Source: a candidate division WOR-3 bacterium (GTDB lineage: Bacteria; Hydrothermota; Tepidihabitantia; B3-TA06). From it: 64,000 nt of DNA. Each line of letters opens with the position of its first letter. The stretch's first letter is position 1. A program made the position numbers and the translations under genes. The stretch lies in contig JAFGSK010000029.1 of NCBI GenBank assembly GCA_016934635.1, positions 895 to 64,894 of the forward strand. Direction: 5' to 3'. The notes below the pieces were generated by a model. That model had not been told where the DNA came from and searched no databases. It saw only the letters and a list, made by a program, of their open reading frames with translations. Shown here piece after piece: positions 15,419 to 38,122 of the stretch.

Positions 15419-18310
15419 TCAAGGCTCTAGCAGGGCTTTCTTGACTACACTGCGCTTCCTGCCTTTACTAGGGTTAATGCTGTACACGTATAAGTATACT
15501 CCTGGAGCAAGTTCTTCTCCATTGACGGTTGCTTCCCACTCGACCCTATAGGTGCCTGGAACGTGATGCTTATCTGAAAAGATGGTTGCGATGTGTTCCC
15601 CGGCCCTGTTGAATACCGAAAGGCTTGCCGAACCTTCTACCGGAACGCTGTAGACGAAGGTTGTGAACCCGGAAAAAGGATTCGGGAAGTTGTGGATATC
15701 GAGAATAGGCAACGCAGCGGTTATTATTATCGCGGAGTCCCTTGGCAAGCTTTCAGATGCGACGGTTACGTAAACCCAGGTTGTTTCTACTGGGACAACC
15801 GAGGTATCTGGTACAGCCAGACCCAGTAAGCTTGGATAGATGCCCTCCGGCATCTTTACTTCAACGAATAAGTCTCGGCTGCCGCCTAAAGGATCAATCT
15901 CCCCCACATCAGGTATGGAATTATTGTTGCTGCTTTGCAGAATTGCCTTCCCGGTCGAATCGTAGACGGCCGTTGGCCATCCTTGGGAGTATCTATAGCT
16001 TATCTCTCCAATCTCGTGGGTGTTGCCGTGATTGATAACCGATAAAGGGTAAGTTTCAACCGGATCAGAGGGGGTGACTACACCTTCTTGATCCGGCTTT
16101 ATCTCAAGTGAGGTTGTCTTAGGCGGATTTATGACAAGTACTGCATCGTCGGAAACCTTGTTATCGTTGGATGATCTGCCTGTAACATAAACCGTATCAG
16201 GAACCAGTATGTTGGATGGCACACTGACAAGGGCGGTGAAGTTTTTGTTACCTCCTCTACCTCCAAGACTACCCAAATCAACAACCCCGTCTGCATCGTT
16301 ATCTAGGAGCGGGATACTGCCCGATGTATCCATCAACTCCACACCCCAGCCGTGAACGCTTGAGCCTGAAAGGTCTATTACATCGGGCCACTTCCCCCAG
16401 TTTGTCCCGGTAAGTTCAAAAGCATACTCCCCCCCTTGACTTCCGGCAACGGTATCATAATCAGGGTTGACCGTAATCGATATTTCGGGAAGAACGCTGG
16501 TGATAACGAGCGCTGAGTCGTAAAACGCTTCGACGTTCGAGGAGTAACCGTATACTATCATCGTATCCTGATGTCCGGCGGAAGCGTTCCCCGGAATACC
16601 CGCCCTGACGGTAAGACCCGCAGAGTCACCTAAAGGATTAAGCTCCCCGACGTCCGGGTATCCATCACCATCAGTATCCTGAAGAGGAGCCCCGGTTGAA
16701 CCGCCGATATTGTGGTACCACCCGGAACTCGAGGTCCTATATCTTATATCGACAACATCAGGGCGCTCCGTATAGTTTATGACCCATAGCTGGTAGGTTA
16801 TTGTATCACCCGGGAAACCGGCGCCGTTCCTGTCCGGTCTAACGATTATCCCTCCCGGCAGGATCTCCACAAGATACAAAACAGGCAAATAGGACGGATT
16901 ATCGTAGGTAAAGATTGCCCTGTACTGGATATAGCGTGAAACGATATTCCCTGGAATGGTGTGATTGTTTTGAACCCTGCGCCAAGGGCCCCAGGTTGAT
17001 GTATCAGATGAATCTCCCCACCTGATCTCCATGTCTATGAAACTCTTTCCAGGACACGAGTCTTCCCAGTGTATCGCGCCCCAGAGGGTAGGTTCCCCTG
17101 CGTCATGGATTGAAGAGTTGTAAATCTCCTCATAATCCCGGGTATATACGTTGCCAATCTCGTGACACATACCATGATGGGAGGATACTTCGATTACTGT
17201 AGAGTTATAGGAAGGTCCCCAGAATATCCTTGAAGAAGGTTTCTTAGACGATCTATCGTATGCGAAGATATCCAGATCCCCATCGTAATCAAGATCGGCA
17301 ATCAATCCACCTGTAGAAACATTTATCGTACTCCCCAAATCGGAGTAATTCCCGAGTGATATTCCGTCGCTCGTTCCGCAATATATACGATTTGGGACAT
17401 CAGGGGAGCTGTAGAATAAAACATCGAGATAGCCGTCGTAGTTGAGATCGGCAATCTGGCTTCCCCCGATACCGTCACCTGGCAAAGGTAAGTAGAGGTC
17501 AGGTTCTATTATGGACAAGTTGTCGATATCCTTTCTCCCCCACACAATCACGCCGTTACTAGCCATTCGAGATGTGAAAACCATATCCAGCCAACCGTCT
17601 GAATTAATATCGGCCACAGATACCCCGTGAGCCAGGGGTTCAAAAGGCACAACGGTACGGTCGCCTGAAGAAAATCCCTTCGCGCCACCCCAATATATAT
17701 ACCTGTTGCCGGATTCTTCTGCTACAACTATTGCATCCAACCAGCCATCCTTGTTGAGATCAGCGGCTTCGGGATGATTCGAGGCGAAATCGCACGGCAA
17801 GGTCGTAAAACCGCCTCCGGGAAAACCGCCTCCACTGCCCCAGTGTATTGAAGCATTATCTTTGTCTGAAGAACTCAGGATATCCAGGTATCCATCCTTG
17901 TTGAAATCGGCTATAAATATTCCTTCAGTCCAGTCTTCTAGGTACGTAGGTGTATTCGGGTCAGGGCCGTCCTTGGTTCCCCAATAGATCGATGCGCCCG
18001 AGTGAAAACGGGTGCTTACAAGTTCAGGATACCCGTCGATGTTAAGATCGGCGACATCGCACCCTGCGCTTCCTTGATATAATGTCGAGTTGTTGTAACT
18101 GTATCCGGATTTGGATCCCCAAAGTATCCACCCCTCACCGGGTAGATCGATATAACCGTCATTATTCAAATCAAAGCGGGCGACAAACTCCACAGCGCCC
18201 CCCTTGCGATGAGAACAGTAAAGTTCTCTTGAGAACCACCCGTCTCTGAAATCGGCCTGCGTTGTTTCAATCCACTCCCCTGCAAAGAGGATAAGTGATA
18301 AGAGAAACAT
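15419..18310 (-). CDS. FG-GAP/VCBS-repeat protein with three DxDxDG modules and T9SS C-terminal sorting domain
   Basis: N-terminal half carries repeated D(L/I)N.DGY.D FG-GAP-like motifs. Three ~110-aa modules carry DTDGDGYPDVG-type motifs. The CTD reads FPNPFSGFTTFVYSVP...GVYLYVY. Paralog of 20185..23475. Confidence 0.8.
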   Translation of the reverse strand: MFLLSLILFAGEWIETTQADFRDGWFSRELYCSHRKGGAVEFVARFDLNNDGYIDLPGEGWILWGSKSGYSYNNSTLYQGSAGCDVADLNIDGYPELVSTRFHSGASIYWGTKDGPDPNTPTYLEDWTEGIFIADFNKDGYLDILSSSDKDNASIHWGSGGGFPGGGFTTLPCDFASNHPEAADLNKDGWLDAIVVAEESGNRYIYWGGAKGFSSGDRTVVPFEPLAHGVSVADINSDGWLDMVFTSRMASNGVIVWGRKDIDNLSIIEPDLYLPLPGDGIGGSQIADLNYDGYLDVLFYSSPDVPNRIYCGTSDGISLGNYSDLGSTINVSTGGLIADLDYDGDLDIFAYDRSSKKPSSRIFWGPSYNSTVIEVSSHHGMCHEIGNVYTRDYEEIYNSSIHDAGEPTLWGAIHWEDSCPGKSFIDMEIRWGDSSDTSTWGPWRRVQNNHTIPGNIVSRYIQYRAIFTYDNPSYLPVLYLVEILPGGIIVRPDRNGAGFPGDTITYQLWVINYTERPDVVDIRYRTSSSGWYHNIGGSTGAPLQDTDGDGYPDVGELNPLGDSAGLTVRAGIPGNASAGHQDTMIVYGYSSNVEAFYDSALVITSVLPEISITVNPDYDTVAGSQGGEYAFELTGTNWGKWPDVIDLSGSSVHGWGVELMDTSGSIPLLDNDADGVVDLGSLGGRGGNKNFTALVSVPSNILVPDTVYVTGRSSNDNKVSDDAVLVINPPKTTSLEIKPDQEGVVTPSDPVETYPLSVINHGNTHEIGEISYRYSQGWPTAVYDSTGKAILQSSNNNSIPDVGEIDPLGGSRDLFVEVKMPEGIYPSLLGLAVPDTSVVPVETTWVYVTVASESLPRDSAIIITAALPILDIHNFPNPFSGFTTFVYSVPVEGSASLSVFNRAGEHIATIFSDKHHVPGTYRVEWEATVNGEELAPGVYLYVYSINPSKGRKRSVVKKALLEP

Positions 18311-18337
18311 ACATAACCTCCTTTCGGAACCTTGTCT

Positions 18338-18365
18338 ATATTACTTACCTGTCCATTCCTGTCAA
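18338..18365 (-). promoter_or_regulatory. Promoter for 15419..18310
   Basis: TTGACA-N16-TAATAT on the minus strand. Confidence 0.6.
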
Positions 18366-18400
18366 GACCAGCAATAAAGGCTTTTTGAGTCTACCTTTGA

Positions 18401-20188
18401 TCATTCGTCCTTGGCCAGCAACCGAAACTCGATGCGGCGGTTCATGGCTCGACCCTCGGGTGTCTCGTTGGAGGTCAAGGGCTCGGACTCACCGTATCCC
18501 TTGCAGACGAACATCTTCTCAGAAAGCCCGTGTTTTTCAACGAGGTATGTTCTTATCGACTCGGCCCGGGCCTCGGAGAGTCGCTGGTTATCACCAAACG
18601 GGCAGTATACGACCGGTACGTTGTCTGTATGCCCGGCTATCTCGATTCGAAGACCTCGGTCCGCGTTTGCAGCCAGTGCAGGAGCGATCGAGTCCAGTAT
18701 CGGGGCATGGGCTGCAAGGAGGTCTGCTTTTCCTGTCTCGAAGTTCAGGTAAATGGTCATCAAAACATCGGCACGTCTTTCCTGGGATACGTAGAGATCG
18801 AGGTTTATCGTATCACACGGCGTAACATCCACGCGATAGATGGACGGGATCAGTCTTTCTTCCCGAGGAATTACTTTCACAAGGTATTCCCCGGGGAATA
18901 ACGGATTACTCTGGTAGGTGCCCCACGAAGGATCGCTCTCGACTGAATCTTCGGTCTCTCCTTTAAAAAAGACTGCCGCCTGGGTGGGCCTTCTGGTTCC
19001 TTGTTCCATCACGATCCCCTTCAATATACCGCCGGGAATAGAATCAAGGGCCAATAAAACTATGTTCAACCGAGCCGGTTCCAGGATCAATGATCGTTCG
19101 CCTGGAAGGTAGTTTTGAGCTTCGGCCTTTACTTTGAACTCACCGGGATCGAGCCAGTTGCGGCGTACGTAGCCCAGGGTCTCTAAGGTGTCAGCAACTG
19201 CACCGCTCATCTGGAGTTCAGCTACCAGTAAGGTGCTGTCTTGGGAGTTTATTACTTTTACCAAAACGTCTGCTGTGGAGGGCCGTTCATTAAGGTAGCG
19301 GGAGATACATATTGAGTGTGTGACTCCCAACGGTCCATAAGGCACTAGTGCGTAATCCACCCGGAAATCCTTCCAGAAAAGCCCTATGCCGGCAGTAGGC
19401 GCGGCCCAGAATCCCCAGTAAGCGGTGGTTGCGTTAAACCTCGATCCCACGCGTAGAGCAATCAGTTCGTGCGGCATCACTTCTATACCTGCCCGCGCCT
19501 CGAACCCGGCATCACTTTCTCCACCTATGCTCACAGAAAGGGTAGTACTGGGAAGTATCCTAAGGGACAGGCCTGCATCGGCTGCCCATGGTGTCTTAAC
19601 CCGATCTCCCGCGTAGGTTATTCCTGGTCCAATATCGTGCAGCGCAACCCCTATGGACATCCACTCTAAAGGCTGCCACCACAACCCTGCATCGAACACC
19701 GCGCCTGTGCCTATTGCATCGGTCAGGTTTTCGTACAGTAGTTTTGTACCCAGGCCTAATGCTACTCCTCGCTGGAACGAATAGGCGAATGCTACATCGA
19801 TCACAGCGCTTTGGGGATGTACTTTTCCTGAAGGCTGATTGGTTTCATCCCAGGTCTCGACTGCAGTAAGGGAGTAGAATGCGGCAACCCCGATGGAGGC
19901 TCTTTGCCAGGGCCAGGCAAAACCCATGAACTCATCGTGTATGGATGCCAGCCAGGAGCGGTAACCCAGCATCACTTCTCCCCTACTCAAGCCTTCCAGA
20001 CCTGCAGGGTTCCACCACATATTCGATGCATCGTGCGTCCAGGCAGTCCCGGTTCCCCCTATGGCAGGCAGAGAAGCACCATAACCCGTACGCAGCAGCG
20101 TGAATGCGTTGGTTCCAACCTCCTGAGCATTGAACTTTCCAGCCAGGATAATTCCGAGGACTAAGGCTAAGGTGTTGATTCTCCTCAT
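18401..20188 (-). CDS. PorV/PorQ-like beta-barrel fused to CarboxypepD_reg-like domains and an OmpA-type peptidoglycan-binding domain
   Basis: Has a signal peptide. N-terminus reads AFTLLRTGYGASLPAIGGTGTAWTHDASNMWWNPAGL, a pattern typical of T9SS-associated PorV/PorQ barrels. C-terminus has OmpA motifs: IAGHTDNVP, NQRLSEARAESI, NRRIEF. Confidence 0.7.
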   Translation of the reverse strand: MRRINTLALVLGIILAGKFNAQEVGTNAFTLLRTGYGASLPAIGGTGTAWTHDASNMWWNPAGLEGLSRGEVMLGYRSWLASIHDEFMGFAWPWQRASIGVAAFYSLTAVETWDETNQPSGKVHPQSAVIDVAFAYSFQRGVALGLGTKLLYENLTDAIGTGAVFDAGLWWQPLEWMSIGVALHDIGPGITYAGDRVKTPWAADAGLSLRILPSTTLSVSIGGESDAGFEARAGIEVMPHELIALRVGSRFNATTAYWGFWAAPTAGIGLFWKDFRVDYALVPYGPLGVTHSICISRYLNERPSTADVLVKVINSQDSTLLVAELQMSGAVADTLETLGYVRRNWLDPGEFKVKAEAQNYLPGERSLILEPARLNIVLLALDSIPGGILKGIVMEQGTRRPTQAAVFFKGETEDSVESDPSWGTYQSNPLFPGEYLVKVIPREERLIPSIYRVDVTPCDTINLDLYVSQERRADVLMTIYLNFETGKADLLAAHAPILDSIAPALAANADRGLRIEIAGHTDNVPVVYCPFGDNQRLSEARAESIRTYLVEKHGLSEKMFVCKGYGESEPLTSNETPEGRAMNRRIEFRLLAKDE

Positions 20189-23100
20189 CGTTCACCCCCT
20201 CTGGTGCAGAGCATCTTGTATAAGATACGCTTGGAAGATCCTCCTTCAGGCTTGAATTCGAGTAACAACAGGTATACACCTGGTGCTAATGGCTTTCCAG
20301 ACTGGGTCAAAGCGGGCCACTGGAAGGCATGAACCCCGGTTTCGCAGTTTCTCGTAAATATCGTTCCGACAGGGCGGCCTGCACGATCGGCCAGTCTCAG
20401 GTTGATTAAGCCCGGTTCAGGCTGGCTCCACACAATAGTCGTCCTCGTAACAAAGGGATTCGGATAGTTGTGTACGGAAAGCCCGGGCAGAGCCGAGGTT
20501 TCGAGCACGGCTTCGTCCTGCCGGACTCCATCTGAGCTTGAGGATATGTAAACCCAGGTTGACTCAGCAACCCTCGAGGATGCACTTGAGGTATCTATGA
20601 AACCGCAGGTGGGATCAAAATCCTCAGGCATGGTTACATCTACGAACAAGGTATAGCTGCCTCCGAAGGCTGCAAGCTCTCCTACGTCGGGAATACCGTT
20701 TGAATTGTTGTCCTTGAGAGGCTCTTCGCCGGTTGAATCATACACAGTTACTGTCCAACCGCGCCATCCTTCCCAGGATATATCCCCAGTTTCAGGGCCG
20801 TTCCCGTGATTGATAACCATTAGCTGGTATCTAAAGGTTGGGGATTCGGGTGAAACCGCACCTTCGTGATCGGGTCTGATTTCCAGGTTGGTTACCTCAA
20901 GCGGATTGAGAACCAGGATAGCTTCATCTGTGGCATCTGTTCTTATTGATGAGCGACCGACCACATGAACGGTGTCTGTTGTCGAAATCGATGCTCCGGT
21001 AGGAACCTTAACCCTCACGGTAAAGTATTCCCTTTGGAATCTATCCAACGGACCCACATCGGGCAAACCATCTGCGTCTCCGTCTGAAAGTGGCATAGCC
21101 CCGTTTTCATCCAGAAGCTCAGCATCCCATCCGTGCACGCTGGTTGCCGTGAGATCAATTACGTCCGTAATTAAGCCGTAGTTGCTGCCCCAGAGTTCAA
21201 ACACTATCTCCTGTTCAGGATATCCTGTCGTATCCTGATCGGGTTCTACAAGAATTTTTACCTCAGGGATGACTTCTATGATAAGGATGGCTTCGTCAGT
21301 GATTAGTTCATCCTGGGATGAGGTTCCGAGTACCGTAATCGTATCGACCGTGCCTTCAGTTGCTCCTGAAGGTACGGCTACCCTTGCGGTAAAATCCTTA
21401 GAGTCACCCCGGTACATCGTGTCAAGATCGGGCATTCCGTCTGAATCGTGATCGGTGACCGGGAAGGCCGCGCTTTCGTCCAGCAACTCGACGTTCCAGC
21501 CCCGGGCGCTCACTACAGCCAGATCTATTACATCGGGGTCCCTGCCGAGGTTGCCGCCCCGGAGAGAGAAGGTAATTATCTCACCGGCCAGAGCCATCGT
21601 ATCCTGATCAGGATCAACATAGATATTGACAGGTGGAAGAACAGTGGTAACGAGTATCGCCGAGTCGTAAAGCCCTTCAGGATAAGAGGAGCGACCGTAC
21701 ACGACGCAGGTGTCAACACCCGTAAAAATATCATCAGGTATCCCAACAAGCATGTGCATCTTTGTCTGCGAGTTTGACGGAAGAGGTCCGACATCTCGGG
21801 TTCCATCCGAATCGGTGTCGGGCAGATTACCGTCGAGTGAATCCTGTGCCTCATGAAACCAACCCGTTGTGTTTGTTATGTAACTGATATCAATTATGTC
21901 CGTACGAGAAGTTAAATTGATTACGTCCAGTTCATACCTGACGGTGTCCTCTGGAAAAGAAGTACGTTGTTGGTCAGGTTCCACAATGATCACATCATCC
22001 CTGTATACGATACCCACTAGGAACAATACCGCGAGGTGTGCGGGGTTTTCATATGTAAAGGTGGCACGATACTGGATATATCTGGATTTTAGGTTGTATG
22101 GGATCAGCTCCCCATTAGTCACCGGGACCCAACCACTCCAGCTTGAGGTATCAGGGGTATCCCCGACCCTTATCGCTAGTGTAATATTACTTGAGCCTGG
22201 ACACGAATCCTCCCACCAAATTGTATCCCAGTAAACCTCCCGGTCCGCCTCGAAAACTGAAGAGTAATACTCCTCTCTGTATTCGCGGGTGTACACGTTG
22301 CCGATCTCGCGAGAAAACCCATGGTGGGTAATGATCGGTACAAGTTCGTAGCTGTTAAAATCCGGGCCGTAAAAGAAAGCTGAATAATCAGTCCAATCCA
22401 TAGAAAATAGATCGAGATGGCCATCGAAATTGAAATCTCCAACCATTCCACCACTACCTTGTGTTAAGGCATAGGGCATATCTCTGTAGCGTCCCAGCGC
22501 AATACCGTCCTGTCCACCCCAGTAAACACGAGGTGGGACATTGTCGTCGCCGAAGAAAACAACATCAAGATATCCGTCTTCGTCGAGATCGGCAATGGAG
22601 TTTCCTCCAAAGGCTCTATCAGGCAAGGGTAGTTGAAGGGGAACATCAACAGTAGCTCCTTCTTGATAACTCTCCAGACTTCCCCACATAATAGAACCAT
22701 ATCTGTCACCGATAGTATTAGATGAAAAAACGATATCCAACCAGCCATCGTAATTTAAATCAGCAACCGATACACCGTGGGAGGCGTTATGATCGTCGTT
22801 TATTCTTGTATAGTTATTAGTGGAAAACCCCTGAGGGCTTCCCCAGTATATGAACTCAGTTCTTGAATTCCCAGAAGTCACAATCGCGTCAAGCCAACCA
22901 TCTTTATTTAGGTCAACAGCTTCGGGATTATAGCCAGTTACATAACATGGAAAGGCAAAATAGTTACTTGATGAATAACCGGTTGTCGATCCCCAATAAA
23001 TCGCTGCGTTATTGTCGTCCTTCGAACCTAGAAGATCGAGATATCCGTCTTTATTAAAATCTGCGGCCATAACACCTTCATTATTGTGGTTACTTGTAGG

Positions 23101-23475
23101 AATAGTCGCAGGATTATCAGGTGAAGGGCCTTCTGGTCCCCCTTTATAGATGCGGATAGGGTTACTATTAACTTGCGTTGATATATATTCCGGATAGCCA
23201 TCCGTATCTACATCTGCGGCATCAGATCCACCGTATCCTTCATAATTTGTCACAATGTCATGTGAGTATCCATTTGCCCCACCCCACATGATCCAACGAC
23301 ACCCTATGATATCGATATATCCATCGTTGTTTAGGTCGAACCTACCCACGAACTCTACTGCACCGTCACCCCTATGGGACGAGTACAGGTCCCGGGTAAA
23401 CCAGCCGTCTCGGAAATCTTGTTGGGTAGTCTCCACCCATTCTCCTGCAAAAAGGATGAGCGGTAAAAAGATCAT
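20185..23475 (-). CDS. FG-GAP/VCBS-repeat protein with four DxDxDG modules and T9SS C-terminal sorting domain
   Basis: Same architecture as 15419..18310, with one extra ~130-aa module. CTD reads YPNPFVTRTTIVWSQP...GVYLLLL. The stop overlaps the downstream start (ATGA). Confidence 0.8.
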   Translation of the reverse strand: MIFLPLILFAGEWVETTQQDFRDGWFTRDLYSSHRGDGAVEFVGRFDLNNDGYIDIIGCRWIMWGGANGYSHDIVTNYEGYGGSDAADVDTDGYPEYISTQVNSNPIRIYKGGPEGPSPDNPATIPTSNHNNEGVMAADFNKDGYLDLLGSKDDNNAAIYWGSTTGYSSSNYFAFPCYVTGYNPEAVDLNKDGWLDAIVTSGNSRTEFIYWGSPQGFSTNNYTRINDDHNASHGVSVADLNYDGWLDIVFSSNTIGDRYGSIMWGSLESYQEGATVDVPLQLPLPDRAFGGNSIADLDEDGYLDVVFFGDDNVPPRVYWGGQDGIALGRYRDMPYALTQGSGGMVGDFNFDGHLDLFSMDWTDYSAFFYGPDFNSYELVPIITHHGFSREIGNVYTREYREEYYSSVFEADREVYWDTIWWEDSCPGSSNITLAIRVGDTPDTSSWSGWVPVTNGELIPYNLKSRYIQYRATFTYENPAHLAVLFLVGIVYRDDVIIVEPDQQRTSFPEDTVRYELDVINLTSRTDIIDISYITNTTGWFHEAQDSLDGNLPDTDSDGTRDVGPLPSNSQTKMHMLVGIPDDIFTGVDTCVVYGRSSYPEGLYDSAILVTTVLPPVNIYVDPDQDTMALAGEIITFSLRGGNLGRDPDVIDLAVVSARGWNVELLDESAAFPVTDHDSDGMPDLDTMYRGDSKDFTARVAVPSGATEGTVDTITVLGTSSQDELITDEAILIIEVIPEVKILVEPDQDTTGYPEQEIVFELWGSNYGLITDVIDLTATSVHGWDAELLDENGAMPLSDGDADGLPDVGPLDRFQREYFTVRVKVPTGASISTTDTVHVVGRSSIRTDATDEAILVLNPLEVTNLEIRPDHEGAVSPESPTFRYQLMVINHGNGPETGDISWEGWRGWTVTVYDSTGEEPLKDNNSNGIPDVGELAAFGGSYTLFVDVTMPEDFDPTCGFIDTSSASSRVAESTWVYISSSSDGVRQDEAVLETSALPGLSVHNYPNPFVTRTTIVWSQPEPGLINLRLADRAGRPVGTIFTRNCETGVHAFQWPALTQSGKPLAPGVYLLLLEFKPEGGSSKRILYKMLCTRGGER

Positions 23476-23597: not shown

Positions 23598-23625
23598 ATA
23601 ATAGTACACAAACAAGTCTTGTCAA
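23598..23625 (-). promoter_or_regulatory. Promoter for 20185..23475 with ~115-nt leader
   Basis: TTGACA-N16-TATTAT on the minus strand. Back to back with a plus-strand TTGACA at 23629. Confidence 0.55.
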
Positions 23626-23679
23626 GGGTTGACATGGGGTTAGACATGGTTAACCTTGCGTATGACTCAAGGAGGTCGA

Positions 23680-24432
23680 ATGAAGATAAAGAAGGTTCTA
23701 ACGCTGGCATTTATCGGAATGCTGGTTATCCTCGGCTGCGACATTATTGATGATCTAAAGAAAGGTGTATCACACACCGCTTCACGCATCAACTCCATTC
23801 AAGCAATAGGTGATTCCAAGGAGTTTGCCTTTGTGGATATTGAGTACGTGTTTACCGGGACCGGAGTGGGAAATCAGAAGGCGGTGTTCTCTCGTGAGGA
23901 TTCCGATAAGGCAGATACGATGGATATTGCACTTGCCGGTACATTTTACACCGATATCGACACACTCAAATCCAGCTCGACTTATACCTACGATCTGTCG
24001 CTCCTCAACGGCACCAAACTCACCGCGTACGATAAAATCGAGGTAAAGACCCTGCCTTTGATCGAGATAACCCATCCTGCCGATACTTTCTTCGGGGATT
24101 ATGATCCAGTTGAGGTCAAATGGGACAAGATTTCCTATGACGGAGAAGATTATCTGACTTACGAGGTGGCGCTTTACGATGCTTCGGAACTGGATTTTGA
24201 TGACCCTGATCTGGAAGACTTGCTGGCGCTTTCCAAACCCCTTGAAGGCCCCATCCAGGTGACACTCGATGCAGCAGACACCGAGGGTTCCTACACTTTT
24301 GAATACGCCTCGGCACTTTTTGTCGGCTTTTATGTCGTCAAGGTTACAACCAACAAGGCTCTCTTTGACAAACTCGCGAACAAATCGACGACTTTCAAAC
24401 CCTTCGTGTGGTGTGGACCGCCGCCGAAATAA
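23680..24432 (+). CDS. Lipoprotein of unknown function
   Basis: MKIKKVLTLAFIGMLVILGCD (lipobox ILGC). AGGAGG lies 6 nt upstream of ATG 23680. The track start at 23656 lies in the predicted -10 region. Confidence 0.65.
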   Translation: MKIKKVLTLAFIGMLVILGCDIIDDLKKGVSHTASRINSIQAIGDSKEFAFVDIEYVFTGTGVGNQKAVFSREDSDKADTMDIALAGTFYTDIDTLKSSSTYTYDLSLLNGTKLTAYDKIEVKTLPLIEITHPADTFFGDYDPVEVKWDKISYDGEDYLTYEVALYDASELDFDDPDLEDLLALSKPLEGPIQVTLDAADTEGSYTFEYASALFVGFYVVKVTTNKALFDKLANKSTTFKPFVWCGPPPK

Positions 24433-24523: not shown

Positions 24524-27265
24524 CTATGATTTCTTCTTTCTTCTGACCAGTATCAGCGACAGCGCCACGACCAGTCCAATCAGCGCAAGCGAGACGAAGG
24601 TAATCCAGGTACCAGCATTCTGGTACGGGGAGGAGAAGCGGAATACTATCTCGTGCCTTCCGGATTCGAGGGGCAGTGCTCTCAAGGTGTAGTCCGCGCG
24701 GTAGACCTTGCGCTCGGAGCCGTCGACCCAGGCACGGTAGTAGGGATACCAGTTTTCAGAAAGTACAAGTACAGCCGGTTTTCCCAGGGTGGCGGTTATT
24801 TCAATCGAGTTAGGTTCGTATTTTGTAATGATTGCCTCCCCAGGTAAGGAGGTATCCGGGGATGACATCCAACCTTCTGGTTGTTCCTCAAGGATCACTG
24901 TTTGACGGGGATCAAAGTCAGGCTTCCTCATTCGTTCCAGGATAACCGAGCTGTCCGTGATAACTTCCACCTCGGTGCAGAGCCACGCCCTAGAGCAAGG
25001 GGCGAGGTTGCGGTATATAGTGAGACGCTGGTCTGAATATGCGGGTCGGAATGGGCTGCTTGTCGTATCCAGGATAAAGGCCATGTCGGCAAAGAACCTT
25101 CGTACATTCTCCCGATCCTGGGGTGAATAGAGCTCCATCTGGGAGGTGTCCGGGGGAGTGAGGCCGATGATGTACCGTACGTCGAGCATGGTCAGGAATT
25201 GCTGGTAGCGGAGGTTTACAGGGGTTCGGAACATGATGGTCTGCGGTGAACCGATAAACTCCTGGTATCTTTTAAGCTGGTTGCCGTGGTATCCGCCGAC
25301 CTCCTGGATGCCGTGGAGCATTAGGTAATCGTCGTTACGGTAGATGGGCGTTCCCAGCAACTGGAGATGGTATACCCGGTAAAGGTCTTTGTCCTGATCA
25401 AGGAAATTGACCACGTTATCCTTCCGGTACAGTTCTTCAGCCGAGATCGGATTGCCGTAGCCGTCTTTTACGATATTTACGAAATGCCGATCCACCAGCC
25501 AGAGGTCGGTGAAGACTACGGCGGCCATGAGTAAGGTCCAGAGAATCTTGAGCTTGGGCAGTCGTCCCCACAAGACAAGGATCAGTATTGTTCCGGCTAC
25601 GAAGGCCAACGCCAGCCAGAATCCGGTGCCGAGGTTCTTCATGTTCTGACCCATCCTGAAGCTGCGATCTGCAATCAGTTGCAGATAATAGATATCATTC
25701 TGACTGGGTAAATTACTTTGGCTGTAGCCTCTGCTCATTAAAGCGCTACTAAACAACTCTTGTTTTTTTGACTCTACGTCGTAAGGAGGATTGATTGCAA
25801 GTGAGACCATTCCTTTTCCGATCTCGGAACCTGCATCCTCAATAGTGGTCACTTGTTCGGTGATCTTTAACTGACGTTTCACTGAGTGTTGGATGGAGCC
25901 AACCATTCCCTTGGCGAAACCGGAAGGCGCGAGTGTTGACCAAAGGGCAAGGATTATAAGTAAGCCCCCGACCGAGCTTAAAATAATATTGCCCCAGGTT
26001 CTGAGAGGAGTTTTACTTTTACCCAGTGGTTTTGGATTATCGAGATAGGTCTGCAAACCGAGCATCGCGAGCACCACCGCTGAGAAGCTTACGGTAAAGA
26101 AGATCATGGCAGGTGCCCGGAAGCTCTTGAGCAGGGGGAAGATGTTGTAGGGGATGTGATAGAATGGTGTGTTGCCGCCCAAGGCCATTAACACGCCGAA
26201 TATCCCGAAACCTGCAAAGAACTTGGTCTCTCGTCTTTTCCAGGCCAGGATAATTCCGACTATCATGAGGGCAAGGATGATGATGCCGAAGTATTCCGCA
26301 TGCTGTTTAAAGGCGTTTGACCCCCAGTAATTGTTCAGTATTCCGGAAAAACGCGGATTAAATAGATCAACCAACTCCATCTTGGGTAGTGACCACTGGG
26401 TGTTCCACTCCCATCCTCTACCTCCTGCTCCACGGGGGGAGAATGCCAGGTAGCTTATGGAAGGCAGAAACTGGATCGCAGAGATTGCAAAACCCAGGGC
26501 AAGAGAGCCGAACGAAAGTCCCAGACTCTTTCCTGCATAGCCCCAGCGTTTGTCTCTAATCCCAAGTACGAGGAACTTGAATATAATATAGAAGGCCATG
26601 AGCATGAGCATGTAGTAGGTCATCTGCACGTGAGGGGAAAGCAGGGCCATACCGATAACCAGAGCCAGCAGGGCAAAGTAAATCAATTTTTTCTTCGTTT
26701 CAGGATCGAATGCCTTTTGGATCATGAACAGACCTGCAGGCAGAAGCGAGGCTACGATAACCTTTCCGTCGTGCCCTGCATCAACAAACGAGACGATTGC
26801 TCCTGTGAACATGTATGACAAAGCGCCGATCACAGAAACCAGGTTGCTAAGCTTTAGTGTACGCAGGAACCCGTAGGTGAATATACCGGCAGCAATGATC
26901 TGGAGTATGAACACCAACGCCATCACGGTACCTACAGGGAATATCATCCGCAGTAGCGCGGTAATGTAGAACACGTCGCCGTGCAGGGCGTCTACGTAGG
27001 GAAGCCCGCTGAAGATGTAGGGATTCCAGAGGGGAAACTCCCCGGTAGCCCTGATTGATTCTTTGGCGAAGGTTTTGAACATGTAACCTGAAATGAGCTG
27101 GTCAGACCCGTGAATAAGATGTCCCTTCATCAGGGTATTTATGAAGAGGACTAATACGAGTACCGAAAGACCAAGTAAAACCCAGCCCCATCCGATTTTG
27201 ATATCGGTCCGGACCTTATCTGTACTAACCGGTCTGACCGGTATTGTTTTTTTCTTCTTTACCAT
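24524..27265 (-). CDS. YfhO-family polytopic membrane protein (GT-C-like glycosyltransferase)
   Basis: 913 aa. About 12+ TM helices in the N-terminal two thirds, a large extracytoplasmic C-terminal domain and a final TM. Size and layout are typical of YfhO. Confidence 0.65.
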   Translation of the reverse strand: MVKKKKTIPVRPVSTDKVRTDIKIGWGWVLLGLSVLVLVLFINTLMKGHLIHGSDQLISGYMFKTFAKESIRATGEFPLWNPYIFSGLPYVDALHGDVFYITALLRMIFPVGTVMALVFILQIIAAGIFTYGFLRTLKLSNLVSVIGALSYMFTGAIVSFVDAGHDGKVIVASLLPAGLFMIQKAFDPETKKKLIYFALLALVIGMALLSPHVQMTYYMLMLMAFYIIFKFLVLGIRDKRWGYAGKSLGLSFGSLALGFAISAIQFLPSISYLAFSPRGAGGRGWEWNTQWSLPKMELVDLFNPRFSGILNNYWGSNAFKQHAEYFGIIILALMIVGIILAWKRRETKFFAGFGIFGVLMALGGNTPFYHIPYNIFPLLKSFRAPAMIFFTVSFSAVVLAMLGLQTYLDNPKPLGKSKTPLRTWGNIILSSVGGLLIILALWSTLAPSGFAKGMVGSIQHSVKRQLKITEQVTTIEDAGSEIGKGMVSLAINPPYDVESKKQELFSSALMSRGYSQSNLPSQNDIYYLQLIADRSFRMGQNMKNLGTGFWLALAFVAGTILILVLWGRLPKLKILWTLLMAAVVFTDLWLVDRHFVNIVKDGYGNPISAEELYRKDNVVNFLDQDKDLYRVYHLQLLGTPIYRNDDYLMLHGIQEVGGYHGNQLKRYQEFIGSPQTIMFRTPVNLRYQQFLTMLDVRYIIGLTPPDTSQMELYSPQDRENVRRFFADMAFILDTTSSPFRPAYSDQRLTIYRNLAPCSRAWLCTEVEVITDSSVILERMRKPDFDPRQTVILEEQPEGWMSSPDTSLPGEAIITKYEPNSIEITATLGKPAVLVLSENWYPYYRAWVDGSERKVYRADYTLRALPLESGRHEIVFRFSSPYQNAGTWITFVSLALIGLVVALSLILVRRKKKS

Positions 27266-28304
27266 CTTTTTTCCTCCTCAGGAAGATTAAGGAAATTGCC
27301 ACAAAAGTCAACTCTGCTGCAGTAAACCACAATCTCTGCCCGAAAGAAAGAGCCACCGCCACACCTTCTCCTACCAGACCACCCAGAACCAGGGCCAGAA
27401 GACCCTCTCGTACACCAAGCCCCCCGGGGACGAACACCGCCAATAACCCCACTATGTAGGCTGCAGCAAAACCGCCGGTTACAAGCACCCAGTCAGAAAG
27501 CCCCACCGTATGAACCGAGAACAGAAACAGCCAGAAGGCGGTTCCATAAAGTACCCAGCTTAAGAAATAGAGGATGAAGAAGGCAAGCAGCCCCGGATAT
27601 GAAAGACTGAACTGCACAGACGGGCGTTTGAATAATCTCAGCAACCAGTTGGTGAGCTTTTGCAGTATCCGCGGATGGATAAGAACCAACATCAACACAA
27701 CCGGCACAAGCACCCACCACAAGGATAGGCGCTCCCAACCGATACGTTCGAGTAGGGGGGTAAGAAGTCGCTCCTGCTCAACGAGAAAGGCGAGTAAGGT
27801 TACAAGCACTCCGGAAAGAACCGCGAGAAGCTGTGCTAAAATCGCTGCCCATACCCCGGCACCCGTGTGTACCCCCTCGCGTTTTCCCAGATAAACCATT
27901 CCAACGACCTGCCACACCTTTCCTGGGAGGTAGCGGCCCATGGCTGAGATGGAGAAGATGCGAAACGCGGCACCCAGGCCTATCTTCGACCCCAGGCGGT
28001 TTATGAGTCCCCGCCACAGTAAGATCATGTAAAACAAGGTGCCGCACAGGAGCGCAAAAGAAGCCGCCAGAAGCCATGGATTGAATCGCCAGTCGAAGGC
28101 TGTGACCTGCTGCCAGTTGCAAACAACCGAGCGTACTAGAAAGAAACCTATTGCCCCGATCACCGCAATCTGGATTACCCAGCGCAGAACCTTGAACCAG
28201 GTTTTAGTCTGTGGTTTATCTTCTGAAGCAGGTAATTTTTTTACGTTCGAGCCAGGTTCCTTCACCTGACTGTTCCCGTCCGCAGCTTGATCGATTTTCT
28301 TCAT
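27225..28304 (-). CDS. UPF0104 / lysyl-PG-synthase-TM-region-like flippase-type membrane protein
   Basis: Polytopic, with RYLPGKVWQVVGMVYL and VPGGLGVREG motifs characteristic of the family. Confidence 0.65.
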   Translation of the reverse strand: MKKIDQAADGNSQVKEPGSNVKKLPASEDKPQTKTWFKVLRWVIQIAVIGAIGFFLVRSVVCNWQQVTAFDWRFNPWLLAASFALLCGTLFYMILLWRGLINRLGSKIGLGAAFRIFSISAMGRYLPGKVWQVVGMVYLGKREGVHTGAGVWAAILAQLLAVLSGVLVTLLAFLVEQERLLTPLLERIGWERLSLWWVLVPVVLMLVLIHPRILQKLTNWLLRLFKRPSVQFSLSYPGLLAFFILYFLSWVLYGTAFWLFLFSVHTVGLSDWVLVTGGFAAAYIVGLLAVFVPGGLGVREGLLALVLGGLVGEGVAVALSFGQRLWFTAAELTFVAISLIFLRRKKDGKEEKNNTGQTG

Positions 28305-29474
28305 TTAACTATACAGTATTTGTCTGTAGATAGCGGTAAGTCGTTCGGCGGTGGGCAGGGCAAGGAAGCGTTGCCTGGCTTCTTCTTGACCCTGGCTGGC
28401 CAAGTTGAGGGAGTTTTGTTCATTATTATAAAGATTTTTAATTGCTTGAGCCAGCTCGTTAGCATCGTTCGGTTTTACCAGAATCCCTGTCTTCTGATCC
28501 CGGATGATTTCTCTCTGTCCGCCTGCATCTGCACCGACCGCCACAAGTCCGGCCAACTGAGCCTCCACCAACACCATACCGAAGCCTTCGGCTACCGAGG
28601 GAAGAACCATCACGCCTGCATCAAAGAGCACTCCAGGCAGATGATGATGAGGCAGTCTGCCCGCAAAACTCACCCTGTTAGCTATTTCCTCCCTTGCTGC
28701 AAGTGATTCGAGGTTAATCCGCTCCGGCCCGTCCCCGACAAGGGTTAAATCGAGATAGAGTCCTTCTCTTGCCAGTATCCCTAAAGCCCTTAGTAACACG
28801 TCGAAGCGTTTCTGCCGGGTCAGGTTGCCTACGGCAACGACATGTCTTTTCAGATGCCTGCGCGCTGATGACAGAAACATTCCTGAGGCAGGCATGGGCA
28901 GGACGTAGCGTATTATTCTCTCACCCGACAGATGCTCCAATTGTACTCCCAAATAATCCGATACCGGCAGGGCAAGGGTTACCTTGCTGAGCGCCCAGTT
29001 GGCAAGCAGGCCTCCGAAGGGCAGCGCTTTAAGTAACCGGATGTCAGTGCCGTGAAGGCTCAAAAGGAATGGCAAGTTGCGAGCGCTAAGGGCAACACGG
29101 CCAGCTATCCCTGCAGGGAGTAACCAGTGGGCATGGATTAGATCTATCTCATCGGCTTGAATAACCCTTTTAGTCATTTTGGTGAACGCCCGAATGAACC
29201 TGTTAAGTAAGGTGTACCCTTTCATGCCCCGTCTCAACGTATCGAGCATCCTGCCTTCGTAGGCTATTGTTTCCTCGGGTTCAGCAGAATACCGGAATCG
29301 GTAGATCGTGATATTTTTTCGTTCCTCACACTCAGACAAACCTGGGGCATGTGGACAGATTACGAAGGGCCTGAATTCGTCTTCCGGGAGTGCGCGAACC
29401 AACTCCTGGATGAACGCCCCGGAGTGATCTCCTTTGAATCTGGGATAGTTGTGGGTAAGAAAGAGAACCCGCAT
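28305..29474 (-). CDS. Glycosyltransferase family 4 (GT-B fold)
   Basis: N-terminus MRVLFLTHNYP...GDHSGAFIQEL. C-terminus has the E(x7)E-type motif PSVAEGFGMVLVEAQLAG. Confidence 0.8.
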   Translation of the reverse strand: MRVLFLTHNYPRFKGDHSGAFIQELVRALPEDEFRPFVICPHAPGLSECEERKNITIYRFRYSAEPEETIAYEGRMLDTLRRGMKGYTLLNRFIRAFTKMTKRVIQADEIDLIHAHWLLPAGIAGRVALSARNLPFLLSLHGTDIRLLKALPFGGLLANWALSKVTLALPVSDYLGVQLEHLSGERIIRYVLPMPASGMFLSSARRHLKRHVVAVGNLTRQKRFDVLLRALGILAREGLYLDLTLVGDGPERINLESLAAREEIANRVSFAGRLPHHHLPGVLFDAGVMVLPSVAEGFGMVLVEAQLAGLVAVGADAGGQREIIRDQKTGILVKPNDANELAQAIKNLYNNEQNSLNLASQGQEEARQRFLALPTAERLTAIYRQILYS

Positions 29475-29478
29475 CCGC

Positions 29479-30441
29479 TCAAGGCAGTTTCCTGCGCAGG
29501 GTTTCTATCTCCGCCCTGAGCTGAGCTATCTGTTCGGCAACGAAGCCTGCTATGACCAGTAACAGCCCAACCAGAACCAGAAGGATTACGAGAAACAGAA
29601 GAGACCGCAGCCCGGTTTTGGCAAAGATCAGGAAACCGAGGTATACCAGTCCGACCACAACCCCGGAAAAGACGCTTGCCCCGCCCAGGGTTCCGAACAG
29701 AAGCATCGGTTTACGTGAATAACGCAAGAGGAAGGATACCGATATGAGATCAAGAACCCCGATAGGTATGCGCCAGATTCCGAACTTGGAACGGCCGTGG
29801 ATCCGAGGCTTGAGAGTAACGTCGACCTCGGAGGTCCTCCAGCCGTCCGAAGCGGCAAGAACGACCAGGTAACGATGCCAGTCCTTTCTCAGGGCCATAT
29901 CCTTGACCACCTCGCGCCGGAACGCCTTGATTGAATTGAGGTCTTTTACCTTTACCTTGAGTAATAATCTTGACAGAAGGTTGTAGATCCCGGACACGAA
30001 GCGCTTGGAGTATCGGCCCACCTTTCTTCCGGTGACAAGATCGGTTTTGTCGGCAAGTATGGGTTGGACTAATTTAGAGATGTCGGAGACAAGAAACTGA
30101 AGGTCTGCAGGGAAAAAGACGAAGACCTCACCTCGGGCATTTGAAAATCCGGTTTCGAGGGCCCTGGTAATACCGCGATTAACGCGATGCCTAGCAACCT
30201 TCAGGAAGGGGTGTTTTTTTGCCTGCTCGGCAGCCGCCTCGTAGGTACGGTCAATGCTTCCGTCGTCTACAAGCAGAACCTCAAAGCTGAAAGGCGCCTT
30301 TTTTGCGAACCCGACGAACTCGGCGACCAGTGGTTGGATGTTTTCTTCCTCGTTGCATGCAGGTACTATGATAGAAACCTGGGGCTTCTTGGCTATTGCT
30401 CTCTTCACGGTAAAGTCTACCTTAACGGTACTGAAAGTCAA
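29479..30441 (-). CDS. Glycosyltransferase family 2, polyprenol-phosphate glycosyltransferase-like with C-terminal TM helices
   Basis: VSIIVPACNEEENI, LLVDDGSIDRT and FPADLQ motifs, with two C-terminal TM helices. The start is uncertain (TTG 30441 or GTG 30408). Confidence 0.8.
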   Translation of the reverse strand: MTFSTVKVDFTVKRAIAKKPQVSIIVPACNEEENIQPLVAEFVGFAKKAPFSFEVLLVDDGSIDRTYEAAAEQAKKHPFLKVARHRVNRGITRALETGFSNARGEVFVFFPADLQFLVSDISKLVQPILADKTDLVTGRKVGRYSKRFVSGIYNLLSRLLLKVKVKDLNSIKAFRREVVKDMALRKDWHRYLVVLAASDGWRTSEVDVTLKPRIHGRSKFGIWRIPIGVLDLISVSFLLRYSRKPMLLFGTLGGASVFSGVVVGLVYLGFLIFAKTGLRSLLFLVILLVLVGLLLVIAGFVAEQIAQLRAEIETLRRKLP

Positions 30442-33900: not shown

Positions 33901-33917
33901 AGGTGGTGCTTTACTAG
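30915..33917 (+). CDS. T9SS cargo: NIDO-like N-terminal domain, CARDB-like repeats, CTD (paralog A)
   Basis: Has a signal peptide. FWFYGHWY...YIYPDGLISWDD...IAPLWQDNDP resembles the NIDO pattern. HDVG..L...V.NFG resembles CARDB segments. CTD reads KPNPFVGSTKVSFALP...GIYLVRM...KKVVLY. Confidence 0.75.
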   Translation: MSKKLIALALIFGVAGVVFAGGTVGWNQLPTPETGWYWGYDNTEPGPPFENPIIDALPAANEADIHANPNAYMPDRYNDRPFQYQTFPDSFWFYGHWYDYDNYLYIYPDGLISWDDTKPDGANHPPTAIPPFPVQDDPNELIAPLWQDNDPTAVTTPPETNRIYYMHQIGPGINRFIVQWYNVVSFTTNSNTYNYGLILDLGGQDYMRSDECDNTFYFRYGHFCYISATGWTLDNGAAGIEDVSGNHGFTYHMPSDPHIANGRVCRFGYKLVRQHDVIPWAFISPGRMVLRYTDIEPWGVVGNFGKESETFNIVLDIYDDDDTRVYHQVVAGYHLDSDDYDIVNFPCWMPEELYEEGIHYYRKELITSLDGDLCKNNDTLVEMSYVHCDDSLGYEWDFNNIYTGYWSPNYSFGFYVFGTSYRMDGGVLVKGGRIFMADTDPMKSGYYGYILTDPPRLDIWESNNGCGMPRQDGNVGYGVSQTYQDGWNYAGIPGKVGPRKTDPPGGPGQDKIIEDLGIYAVANINEGNIWGAATSSGVGTGSAGTGGWVSCLALLVAPEPTTCYGGSPLHRGAIWQVNHNHGWYSWYPGYYNETMIVELTVHLGFNPESPRPQPPCYYDYPHDLTIYRVNKPDREYVEDGDETTVELALGNIGRQTEPDETFFPVKLFVVDYDSPSKDTVHAETTQMTHIGWFGDDTDGPDTTLVPMLPWTPEGICKDWVVENGGWENNPIPKELVGVHYEMIGLVRLGEVGPDLSDHCPYNDTCRLYITCLLSHDVGVIDLTNEEGHEWGNSWTDPYPVGTEFTCVATVENFGYNEEHDVIVDLEVMDATKDPDSLVWHNSQEITFLDWRGNDLDNPYVAEVTFPVWETPSTDWFRLECRTELVGDDCPDNDEETRHINIAVAETPVGLPFALEAIKPNPFVGSTKVSFALPHTTNVSLKVYDISGKLVATLVNGTEKPGRHSVTWNGTDDAGRTVAQGIYLVRMESESFSATKKVVLY

Positions 33918-33941
33918 GCACTAAAGAAGAAGGACAGTAAA

Positions 33942-33974
33942 GCTTTGAGAGGGGCCCCAGGCTCCTCTCAAAGC
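33942..33974 (+). other. Hairpin between paralogs A and B (terminator homolog lacking a U-tract)
   Basis: GCTTTGAGAGG...CCTCTCAAAGC. The core GAGAGGGGCC..GGCTCCTCTC is homologous to the terminator stem at 37125. Confidence 0.4.
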
Positions 33975-34006
33975 GCCGGAAAATTGCTTTAAGGAGGAAA
34001 AAACCA

Positions 34007-37102: not shown

Positions 37103-37124
37103 AAAGTTTAAAGATTTTGACCAT

Positions 37125-37155
37125 GAGGGGAGCCGCAAGGCTCCTCTCTTTTTTT
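37125..37155 (+). terminator. Intrinsic terminator after paralog B
   Basis: GAGGGGAGCC-GCAA-GGCTCCTCTC followed by TTTTTTT. Confidence 0.85.
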
Positions 37156-38035: not shown

Positions 38036-38094
38036 AAACTCAATCGAGGTGGGTAACAGTTTCTTTGAACCCGAAACGCATGCTTGAATGAAAC

Positions 38095-38122
38095 TTGACA
38101 AGCCTTATAACGAGGCTAAAAT
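38095..38122 (+). promoter_or_regulatory. Promoter for the TolB-like/C25 peptidase pair
   Basis: TTGACA-N16-TAAAAT. Confidence 0.6.

Follow-up and report, generated by a model that had tools for sequence, protein, structure and literature searches.

Genes and proteins of the locus

The locus described here lies in a 64,000-nucleotide stretch of DNA (the window) from a candidate division WOR-3 bacterium (contig JAFGSK010000029.1). Three consecutive genes on the minus strand, which we call A, B and C, encode two large FG-GAP proteins and, between them, an outer-membrane protein that joins a barrel of the PorV/PorQ family to a C-terminal OmpA domain (Table 1). All three genes are present as a reading made from the sequence alone (the sequence-only reading) had described them, including the ATGA in which the stop codon of A and the start codon of B overlap. 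Also present 5′ of gene C is the TTGACA-N16-TAATAT sequence that this reading had taken for a promoter; it lies with AAGGAGG in the 90-nt gap between B and C and, like a similar site 5′ of A, is a match to consensus only. Promoter-like sites are not enriched across the region (14 versus 11.1 ± 2.8 by chance), and three of the four minus-strand sites with a score of at least 10 of 12 fall within three intergenic gaps.

Table 1. Features of the A-B-C locus, in window coordinates (ORF, open reading frame; Ig, immunoglobulin; CTD, C-terminal domain)
Feature	Residues (aa)	Window position	Strand	Remarks
Promoter-like TTGACA-N16-TATTAT, 5′ of gene A		23598..23625	-	consensus match only
Gene A		23475..20185	-	1096-aa FG-GAP cargo; ORF call
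A, leader	1-11	23443-23475
A, predicted seven-blade FG-GAP propeller	about 12-385
A, beta-sandwich	about 386-495			~110 aa
A, four Ig-like DxDxDG-type stalk modules	496-998	20482..21990	-	120, 123, 123 and 137 aa
A, putative CTD	999-1096	20188..20481	-	98 aa, type-A-like
ATGA overlap, A stop codon/B start codon		20185..20188	-
Gene B		20188..18401	-	595-aa outer-membrane protein: signal peptide, PorV/PorQ-family barrel, two CRD-like sandwiches, OmpA_C
B, barrel domain	22-301	19286..20125	-	N-terminal hatch with WWNPAGL, then 14 strands at aa 69-301
B, two CarboxypepD_reg-like (CRD) beta-sandwiches	302-383 and 384-470	18779..19285	-
B, OmpA_C-like domain	471-595	18404..18778	-
Promoter-like TTGACA-N16-TAATAT, then AAGGAGG, 5′ of gene C		18338..18365	-	consensus match only
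Gene C		18310..15419	-	963-aa paralog of A; ORF call
C, leader		18278-18310
C, three stalk modules		15704-16852	-	123, 123 and 137 aa
C, putative CTD		15422-15703	-	without Cys pair

Protein B begins with a leader that is classical on inspection of the sequence (MRRINTLALVLGIILAGKFNA/QE) and is followed by a barrel that belongs to the PorV/PorQ family, although by equivalog cut-offs it is neither PorV nor PorQ proper. The family model NF033709 gives 99.1 bits for the full-length protein and 102.7 bits for the barrel only, above the cut-off of 90, with aa 26-295 aligned over profile positions 1-322 of 326. The PorV equivalog (NF033710) gives 37 bits against a cut-off of 250 and aligns only aa 21-159, the PorQ equivalog (NF033711) gives 74-77.6 bits against 220 over aa 9-211, and B likewise stays below the PorV2 equivalog; among NCBIfam models, none of the PorP/SprF family matches the barrel at E up to 10. 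We modelled B with AlphaFold2 (AF2) from an alignment of 13 orthologs (mean predicted local distance difference test score, pLDDT, 71.5), and the strand count that the sequence-only reading had called for comes to 14. The best Foldseek matches of this model in the PDB are the PorV chains of the Flavobacterium johnsoniae SprA complex (8gl6_F, E 4e-11; 6h3i_F, target template-modelling score, TMt, 0.59), which range in TMt from 0.57 to 0.59. Matches to FimD ushers, rhamnogalacturonan lyase and the like (TM ~0.13-0.24, root-mean-square deviation 18-33 Å) were rejected as multi-domain artefacts. The PorV/PorQ-type barrel that was first proposed is upheld by both profile and fold.

The WWNPAGL sequence, which had been offered as the signature of that family, does not have this specificity: it contains the NPA hatch motif of the entire FadL superfamily (PMC8407342). 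Its conservation raises the alternative that B is a wall-anchored FadL-type uptake channel for hydrophobic compounds, unrelated to protein secretion. Indeed, the Pfam family UPF0164, which we take to be that of the Treponema FadL-like proteins even though the text of the paper on those proteins does not use the name, gives 27.2-29.2 bits for B, above its cut-off of 21.4, with Toluene_X and PorV as weak further matches. Like B, the FadL-like barrels of Treponema pallidum have 14 strands, a hatch with NPA and an extra C-terminal domain in the periplasm, but there the extension is alpha-helical, the proposed role is nutrient uptake, and no CTD-protein partner is described (PMC8407342). Moreover, the Toluene_X/FadL model PF03349 gives only 14.2-16.6 bits against a cut-off of 29.7, so that the comparison stands at 103 bits for PorV/PorQ versus 17 for FadL, and the FadL and TodX structures (TMt 0.44-0.54) rank behind the PorV chains in the fold search. 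A hydrophobic uptake channel would also leave unexplained the strong and specific gene linkage described below, and we consider it very improbable.

Because a barrel with an even number of strands places both of its termini in the periplasm, the C-terminal arm of B is predicted to be periplasmic. The sequence-only reading had recognised in this arm two CarboxypepD_reg-like folds and a full OmpA domain, and all three are recovered. In the AF2 model the sandwiches span aa 306-381 and 387-468 (pLDDT about 85-92) and the OmpA_C domain aa 475-591. The CRD model PF13620 gives 20 bits for B, below threshold, and is matched by 26 of 55 long relatives (best E 1e-13), while the OmpA model PF00691 gives 72.1 bits against a gathering threshold of 27.2. 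The OmpA domain carries LSEARAESIRTYL (L-S-E-A-R-A-E-S-I-R-T-Y-L), which fits the motif LSX2RAX2VX3L as defined in PMC5053529 with I replacing V, and the fold of the C-terminus matches OmpA_C, OprF and TagL domains at TMt 0.74-0.81.

This arm also resembles part of PorE. The CRD and OmpA_C portion of the PorE model (NF052230) is matched by 28 of the 30 OmpA-bearing relatives, and a distant WOR-3 homolog (L002 in our numbering of loci) reaches 60.5 bits over PorE positions 425-599. These scores are far below the full-length cut-off of 600 bits, and B is not PorE proper: it has no TPR or beta-propeller, its leader ends in KFNA/QEV with no Cys and hence carries no lipoprotein signal, and its N-terminal half is the barrel. 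A derivation of the OmpA domain specifically from PorE was considered and rejected, because PorE 6top (E 2e-4) matches the domain much less well than generic structures of MotB and OmpA do.

Proteins A and C are paralogs with 44% identity, and the FG-GAP region that they had been said to share is confirmed by FG-GAP_3 (PF13517) at 87.5 and 87.3 bits, respectively, against a cut-off of 26.9. Each contains seven DxNxDG loops of calcium-binding type at a spacing of 41-57 aa (in A at aa 47, 88, 139, 188, 239, 296 and 347), and this regular series indicates a seven-blade, integrin-like propeller in both proteins. The four modules counted previously in A and the three in C are also present, at 120-137 aa each. 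The D-x-D-x-D-G-x-P-D-(V/L)-G motif that was attributed to every one of them is intact in three of four modules in A and two of three in C, whereas the remaining modules carry degenerate versions. When stalk and tail of the cargo were used in a word-indexed search, one weak match only was returned and no deep cargo alignment was possible, so a single stalk module was modelled. An alignment of the seven modules present in the window served as input, and AF2 gave for module 3 of A (pLDDT 95.3) an Ig-like sandwich, for which Foldseek returns generic Ig-like or PapD-like folds only.

The short, uncharged leaders noted earlier for both cargo proteins are real: each is 11 residues long, contains no Lys or Arg (K/R), and is preceded by a strong Shine-Dalgarno sequence. 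Orthologs share the short K/R-free leader, which is followed by a conserved W-x-E-T-T-Q-x-D-F. Leaders of 11-16 aa without Lys or Arg are frequent among exported proteins of WOR-3, for example MIFLPLILFAG/EW and MILLLLLFNVFSSQ/DIGTT, and occur at loci L001 and L081-L086 as well as in many WOR-3 barrel homologs.

Both cargo proteins were originally said to end in a canonical type IX secretion system (T9SS) CTD. This wording was too strong, since the tails fall below the cut-offs of both type A models, TIGR04183 and PF18962 (scores are given below). Nevertheless, when aligned with three CTDs of type A from the same window, which score 31-39 bits on TIGR04183, they correspond at each motif, namely PNPF, G-x-x-V-x-T, W, G-x-x-L-A-x-G-V-Y and Lys. 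A profile built from these tails matches the PorU CTD in 6za2 over nearly its full length (E 3e-5), followed by PorZ (E 0.05) and RgpB (E 0.1), and FlgD Ig domains are matched as well. The tail of A gives 27.8 bits on FlgD_ig and 22.1 bits on the PorU tail model, and for A and C alike the PorU CTD gives the tail a higher score than the type A model does. With CHU_C (PF13585), one of the type B CTD models, C stays at 22-24 bits, below the cut-off of 27, and A is not matched; TIGR04131 matches neither protein. These similarities suggest that the tails of A and C are divergent type-A-like CTDs. The CTD of A is further distinguished by two conserved Cys and by a C-terminal extension, K-M-L-C-T-R-G-G-E-R. 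The tails encoded directly 5′ of the barrel gene in close relatives are of the same subtype, with an extension of 6-10 residues (K-x-L-C-T-x-G...) and the Cys pair, and both features are missing from the tails of C and of L002.

Gene order in relatives and linkage to CTD proteins

Full-length orthologs of B (13 sequences, 57-65% identity) come from WOR-3/Stahlbacteria, and the genes around them recur in part. At L001, a 1097-aa FG-GAP protein ends 4 nt inside the barrel gene, and the contig ends past the barrel. The same upstream FG-GAP-barrel pair is found at L081, where two short FG-GAP proteins follow, and at L082 and L083, where nothing lies downstream. L085 carries a 964-aa FG-GAP cargo gene that overlaps the barrel gene by 4 nt, with a downstream 418-aa ORF whose CTD was detected with a custom hidden Markov model (HMM), while the 1102-aa FG-GAP cargo gene of L086 overlaps by 14 nt and is accompanied by an extra FG-GAP protein upstream and none downstream. 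The WOR-3 homolog of L002 is only 30% identical to B, and its gene is likewise overlapped by 4 nt; here the FG-GAP homolog is split into ORFs of 331 and 812 aa. These two ORFs (L002 6333-9971) are ~200 nt apart, and the split may stem from a frameshift, from pseudogene formation or from faulty assembly.

A different arrangement is seen at L084, where three tandem cargo genes precede one barrel gene. Their products (L084 1893-9001; 814, 738-781 and 814 aa) have heads that are not FG-GAP propellers and are unrelated to A, and they share with A only the last ~355 aa, consisting of two modules and the CTD, at 39-45% identity. By its sequence, this locus looks like a head-swapping cassette. In the window and at L001, L002 and L081-L086, cargo and barrel genes overlap by 1-16 nt, mostly through a 4-nt ATGA, whereas a C-like paralog downstream is absent in L082, L083 and L086. 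As judged from these gene orders, the conserved unit is a stalk-and-CTD protein followed by a barrel. The survey of relatives that had been proposed as a check on a cargo-barrel-cargo sandwich therefore bears out its upstream half, the pair of CTD protein and barrel, but not its downstream cargo.

To place the fusion in a broader census, we compared the B barrel by phmmer with 1.8 billion cluster representatives (50% identity), which yielded 6252 barrel relatives at E up to 1e-3. Among the best 150 of these, 82 are standalone proteins of <400 aa and 29-30 have a C-terminal OmpA domain, most of them with CRDs as well, at about 470-630 aa (mostly 575-630). All 55 long relatives match the PorV_fam and PorQ models. 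The fusion architecture is thus widespread in metagenomes and not unique to the window. Some WOR-3 paralogs of about 480-530 aa have a barrel and CRD and no OmpA domain (L089, L090, L093, L097, L099 and L101), and in other relatives the C-terminus is extended by TPR or DUF748-like sequences; this variability implies that the periplasmic arm of the barrel family is modular.

A scan of GTDB genomes with barrel-specific patterns, scored by a custom ORF and HMM script, gave 80 loci. It was seeded from a narrower barrel alignment (A5), because the diverse alignment (A3) had no stretch that was conserved enough. A separate scan seeded with the OmpA motif retrieved mainly unrelated OmpA proteins and was set aside, as were ~2-kb matches in Gemmatimonadales, which are tandem genes for OmpA-domain anchor lipoproteins (PA1041/TraB-like repeats) and not barrel fusions. 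The 36 non-duplicate loci that encode a barrel-CRD-OmpA fusion are almost all from WOR-3, with one from Cloacimonadota and several unclassified. At 31 of them at least 1 kb of upstream sequence could be assessed. A same-strand ORF ends between -30 and +200 nt from the fusion gene in 27 of these 31 loci, and in 25 this upstream ORF has a CTD-like tail. By comparison, such tails occur in 86 of 535 ORFs of at least 250 aa, a background of at most 16% in which the adjacent ORFs are themselves counted. These numbers support a linkage of fusion barrels to CTD-bearing upstream proteins well above background.

The same census bears on whether B might be the general PorV of its lineage, that is, a mobile shuttle for all type A substrates in which the OmpA domain is incidental. 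Its family membership and the leading position of PorV chains in the fold search would fit such a role, and no second PorV-like barrel was found beside the PorU-like gene or anywhere else in the 64-kb window, in which B is the sole one. However, its score on the PorV equivalog is a small fraction of the cut-off and lower than that for PorQ, and a peptidoglycan tether seems ill-suited to a carrier that must leave the translocon. Furthermore, at least four metagenome-assembled genomes (MAGs) contain two barrel loci (L093 and L121, L096 and L104, L097 and L115, L089 and L117), in each case one full fusion and one locus that is without the OmpA domain or cut at a contig end. In the first two of these MAGs, both loci were scored as having a CTD protein directly upstream; in the other two, one locus could be scored so. 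Paralogous barrels with their own adjacent cargo, together with the swapped heads and retained stalk and CTD of the L084 proteins, fit a dedicated partner better than a general shuttle. The canonical CTD proteins of the window have no paired barrel, and annotations from WOR-3 include PorV/PorQ-family proteins that stand alone (for example P0172). We therefore judge it quite unlikely that B is a general PorV.

Outside the fusions, the subfamily also has standalone barrels, which in Elusimicrobia, Endomicrobiales, Firestonebacteria and Desantisbacteria lie downstream of a large CTD protein in 13 of 36 cases. Examples from those phyla and from unclassified MAGs (L132, L136, L146, L147, L156 and L163) are mostly about 300-390 aa long, with one of 498 aa. 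Of the tails of these upstream proteins, six were tested: TIGR04183 is passed by five of them, and for five the highest score comes from the PorZ CTD (46-65 bits). The tested partner tails from WOR-3 and Cloacimonadota give more bits on the PorU CTD than on the type A model. The standalone loci thus look, from sequence comparison, like PorQ-PorZ-type pairs in phyla that are not usually credited with a T9SS.

A possible wall-anchored display unit

The sequence-only reading had interpreted the locus as a dedicated, wall-anchored docking module for T9SS cargo. The fusion of a PorV/PorQ-family barrel to an OmpA domain and the linkage to CTD proteins at 25 of 31 loci speak for the core of this idea, and the sandwich, the canonical CTDs and the analogy to a PorV shuttle need correction. 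We lean, with some reserve, towards a modified form, in which B, itself tethered to peptidoglycan, has the dedicated task of anchoring a T9SS-type CTD. A and B, and probably C, would then make up a unit for surface display, complete in itself, that belongs to a T9SS-type system of a WOR-3/Stahlbacteria bacterium. Proteins A and C would be exported by way of their Sec leaders and would pass the outer membrane by means of their type-A-like CTDs, presumably through a T9SS translocon, and their propeller, beta-sandwich and three or four Ig-like DxDxDG stalk modules would give them an adhesin-like character. The barrel of B would capture and keep the CTD of A, and possibly that of C, as is the case for PorQ with PorZ, PorV with PorU and PorP/SprF barrels with type B substrates, so that barrel and CTD would form a cognate pair. 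The CRD-CRD-OmpA_C arm, with the two sandwiches as a periplasmic spacer, would reach and bind peptidoglycan and thereby take the role that PorE plays for PorP, here fused in one polypeptide. The outcome would be a static, load-bearing link from cell wall through outer membrane to adhesin.

The mobile PorV shuttle, which binds type A CTDs through extracellular loops within the SprA pore (PMC10994853), was the original model for this proposal, but static anchors compare better with a barrel that is tethered to peptidoglycan. The CTDs of PorU and PorZ are retained, and the two proteins have PorV and PorQ, respectively, as their anchors (PMC12365241, PMC11285876). In these pairs of the Porphyromonas gingivalis attachment complex, an uncleaved type A CTD holds a surface protein permanently on a 14-strand PorV/PorQ-family barrel. 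For type B substrates the holder is a cognate PorP/SprF-like barrel, whose gene lies directly downstream of that for the substrate; PorP binds PorE, and PorE binds peptidoglycan (PMC9143113, PMC12618676). F. johnsoniae has five operons that each encode a type B substrate, a cognate SprF-like barrel and a PorE homolog, for which static wall-anchored complexes have been proposed (PMC12618676); examples of such sets are PG1035-PorP-PorE in P. gingivalis and Fjoh_3952-3951-3950 in F. johnsoniae (PMC9143113, PMC12618676).

The locus shares several traits with the PorP/SprF-PorE systems. The gene for a substrate is followed directly by that for its own barrel, the barrel is proposed to hold the C-terminal domain of the substrate at the surface, and a CRD and OmpA_C module, which B also carries, links the complex to peptidoglycan. 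In contrast, the barrel of B is of the PorV/PorQ family and the tail of its putative partner is type-A-like rather than type B, barrel and presumed peptidoglycan binder are one polypeptide, B has neither the TPR and beta-propeller halves nor the lipoprotein signal of PorE, its OmpA domain is not specifically PorE-like, and the host belongs to WOR-3 and not to Bacteroidota. With respect to PorQ-PorZ and PorV-PorU, the likeness extends to the tails, since those of A, C and the WOR-3 partners score best on the PorU CTD and those of partners in other phyla on the PorZ CTD. In Bacteroidota, porU and porV adjoin. The differences are that B lies below both equivalog cut-offs, that PorV and PorQ have no periplasmic domains, that the partners here are FG-GAP adhesin-like giants and not a sortase or a carrier of anionic lipopolysaccharide (A-LPS), and that there are several paralogous pairs per genome.

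Several observations weigh against an anchor for CTD proteins. The tails of A and C give 16.4 and 18.9 bits on TIGR04183 (cut-off 23) and 11.7 and 17.4 bits on PF18962 (cut-off 27). The barrel of B has ~280 aa compared with 345-367 aa in solved PorV chains, its hatch region (aa 17-59) is modelled with pLDDT below 50, and its extracellular loops are short in the model, whereas PorV binds CTDs via long loops (PMC10994853). The retained NPA motif is compatible with a transport role. Genes for SprA/Sov and PorK/L/M/N are not in the 64-kb window, the remaining genome not having been checked for them, and the PorU-like C25 peptidase that the window does encode (1202 aa, with a CTD) matches the PorU model NF033707 weakly, at 78.5 bits against a cut-off of 420. 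In Mantel tests, CTD distances correlate with those of every domain of B (r 0.90 for the barrel, 0.92 for CRD and 0.84 for OmpA), which indicates co-inheritance and not barrel-specific co-evolution. We therefore rejected Mantel and partial Mantel tests as evidence of contact between CTD and barrel, because all domains co-vary through shared descent. Finally, close relatives keep a cluster of YfhO and glycosyltransferase genes directly upstream of cargo and barrel, and in so constant a neighbourhood the co-localisation of cargo and barrel genes could reflect shared envelope biogenesis.

This last point, together with the short loops, leads to the alternative that B is a structural tether between outer membrane and peptidoglycan, or a channel, that makes no specific contact with cargo, and that the gene linkage is due to co-regulation in an envelope-biogenesis neighbourhood in which YfhO-like, LPG_synthase_TM and glycosyltransferase genes show conserved synteny. 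A barrel with a periplasmic OmpA_C domain in a single polypeptide is the classic tether design of OmpA and OprF, the OmpA domain of B is of the generic kind, and its fold matches the C-domains of OprF and AbOmpA at TMt 0.74. Nevertheless, the barrel of B is not of the 8-strand type but has 14 strands, a FadL fold and a hatch; it is followed by two CRD-like spacers, and its gene is systematically linked to those of CTD proteins. The linkage is specific to the immediate upstream gene with a CTD-like tail, often with overlapping codons, and persists at 30% identity and in different neighbourhoods (L002, L084 and L091-L127). A simple tether would also not account for several paralogs per genome that each lie beside a different CTD protein, or for cargo heads that are swapped while stalk and CTD are kept. 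We regard such a tether as unlikely. The repeated and often overlapping CTD linkage, the multiple paralogs and the head-swapped cargos argue against this alternative as they do against a general PorV and a hydrophobic uptake channel.

A search of the literature returned no paper on PorV/PorQ-OmpA fusions or on a T9SS in WOR-3, in line with the sequence-only reading, which did not recognise the architecture as described; a close functional precedent is known (PMC12618676, PMC9143113). The principle of a cognate barrel encoded beside its substrate, together with a peptidoglycan binder, is established, and what is new is the barrel family, the signal type, the fusion and the phylum. Work on surface retention by the T9SS has centred on Bacteroidota and on two routes, namely covalent attachment to A-LPS, and a type B signal with a cognate PorP/SprF barrel and PorE. 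The present locus suggests that an equivalent solution arose outside Bacteroidota from a PorV/PorQ barrel and a type-A-like signal, with barrel and wall binder fused. If the anchor reading is correct, the locus would lend independent evolutionary support to the view that a barrel plus a peptidoglycan binder acts as a static anchor. It would also imply cognate pairing for type-A-like signals, which are thought to share one PorV. A compact two-gene cassette of stalk-CTD cargo and anchor, with heads that could be exchanged as at L084, might then be useful for the study or engineering of surface display. Moreover, proteins like B are at present labelled 'OmpA family', 'MotB' or 'PorV/PorQ family' in databases, and their annotation could be improved.

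A broader generalization is tentative and in our view rather doubtful. A retained type-A-like CTD protein that is gene-linked to its own PorQ/PorV-like barrel could represent a general modular anchoring system across WOR-3, Cloacimonadota, Elusimicrobiota, Firestonebacteria and Desantisbacteria, some of which are not known for a T9SS. The WOR-3 branch would have fused the barrel with a PorE-like CRD-OmpA_C arm, so that a single protein would couple the adhesin mechanically, across the outer membrane, to peptidoglycan. On this view the fusion would count as 'Rosetta stone' evidence that peptidoglycan binders and the carrier barrels of the T9SS form one working unit.

Surroundings of the locus

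On the plus strand next to the locus, and divergent from gene A, lies a 258-aa ORF (window 23656-24432) with a lipobox-like 'VILGC' and no family match. An ORF of 239-258 aa has the same position and orientation at L001, L081-L083, L085 and L086, and may belong to the locus. Farther on, the minus strand of the window (24524-30441) encodes a 913-aa YfhO-like membrane protein, GT4 and GT2 glycosyltransferases and a 359-aa ORF. The latter has no family match and sits where relatives carry an LPG_synthase_TM gene. The conservation of such a cluster next to the cargo-barrel pair of close relatives suggests a link with the synthesis of an envelope glycopolymer, or possibly with glycosylation of the cargo.

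Beyond this cluster, a run of T9SS-type CTD proteins is encoded on the plus strand (window 30915-42903), none of them adjoined by a PorV-like barrel. The run includes two paralogs of 1000 and 1031 aa (38.7 and 37 bits on TIGR04183), a 208-aa protein whose CTD was detected with the custom HMM, a 373-aa TolB-like propeller and the PorU-like peptidase mentioned above. Unrelated to the A-B-C locus is a 1260-aa protein with long TPR arrays (window 51033-54815, plus strand), which gives a partial match, at 190 bits and below cut-off, to a TOMM kinase/cyclase fusion model.

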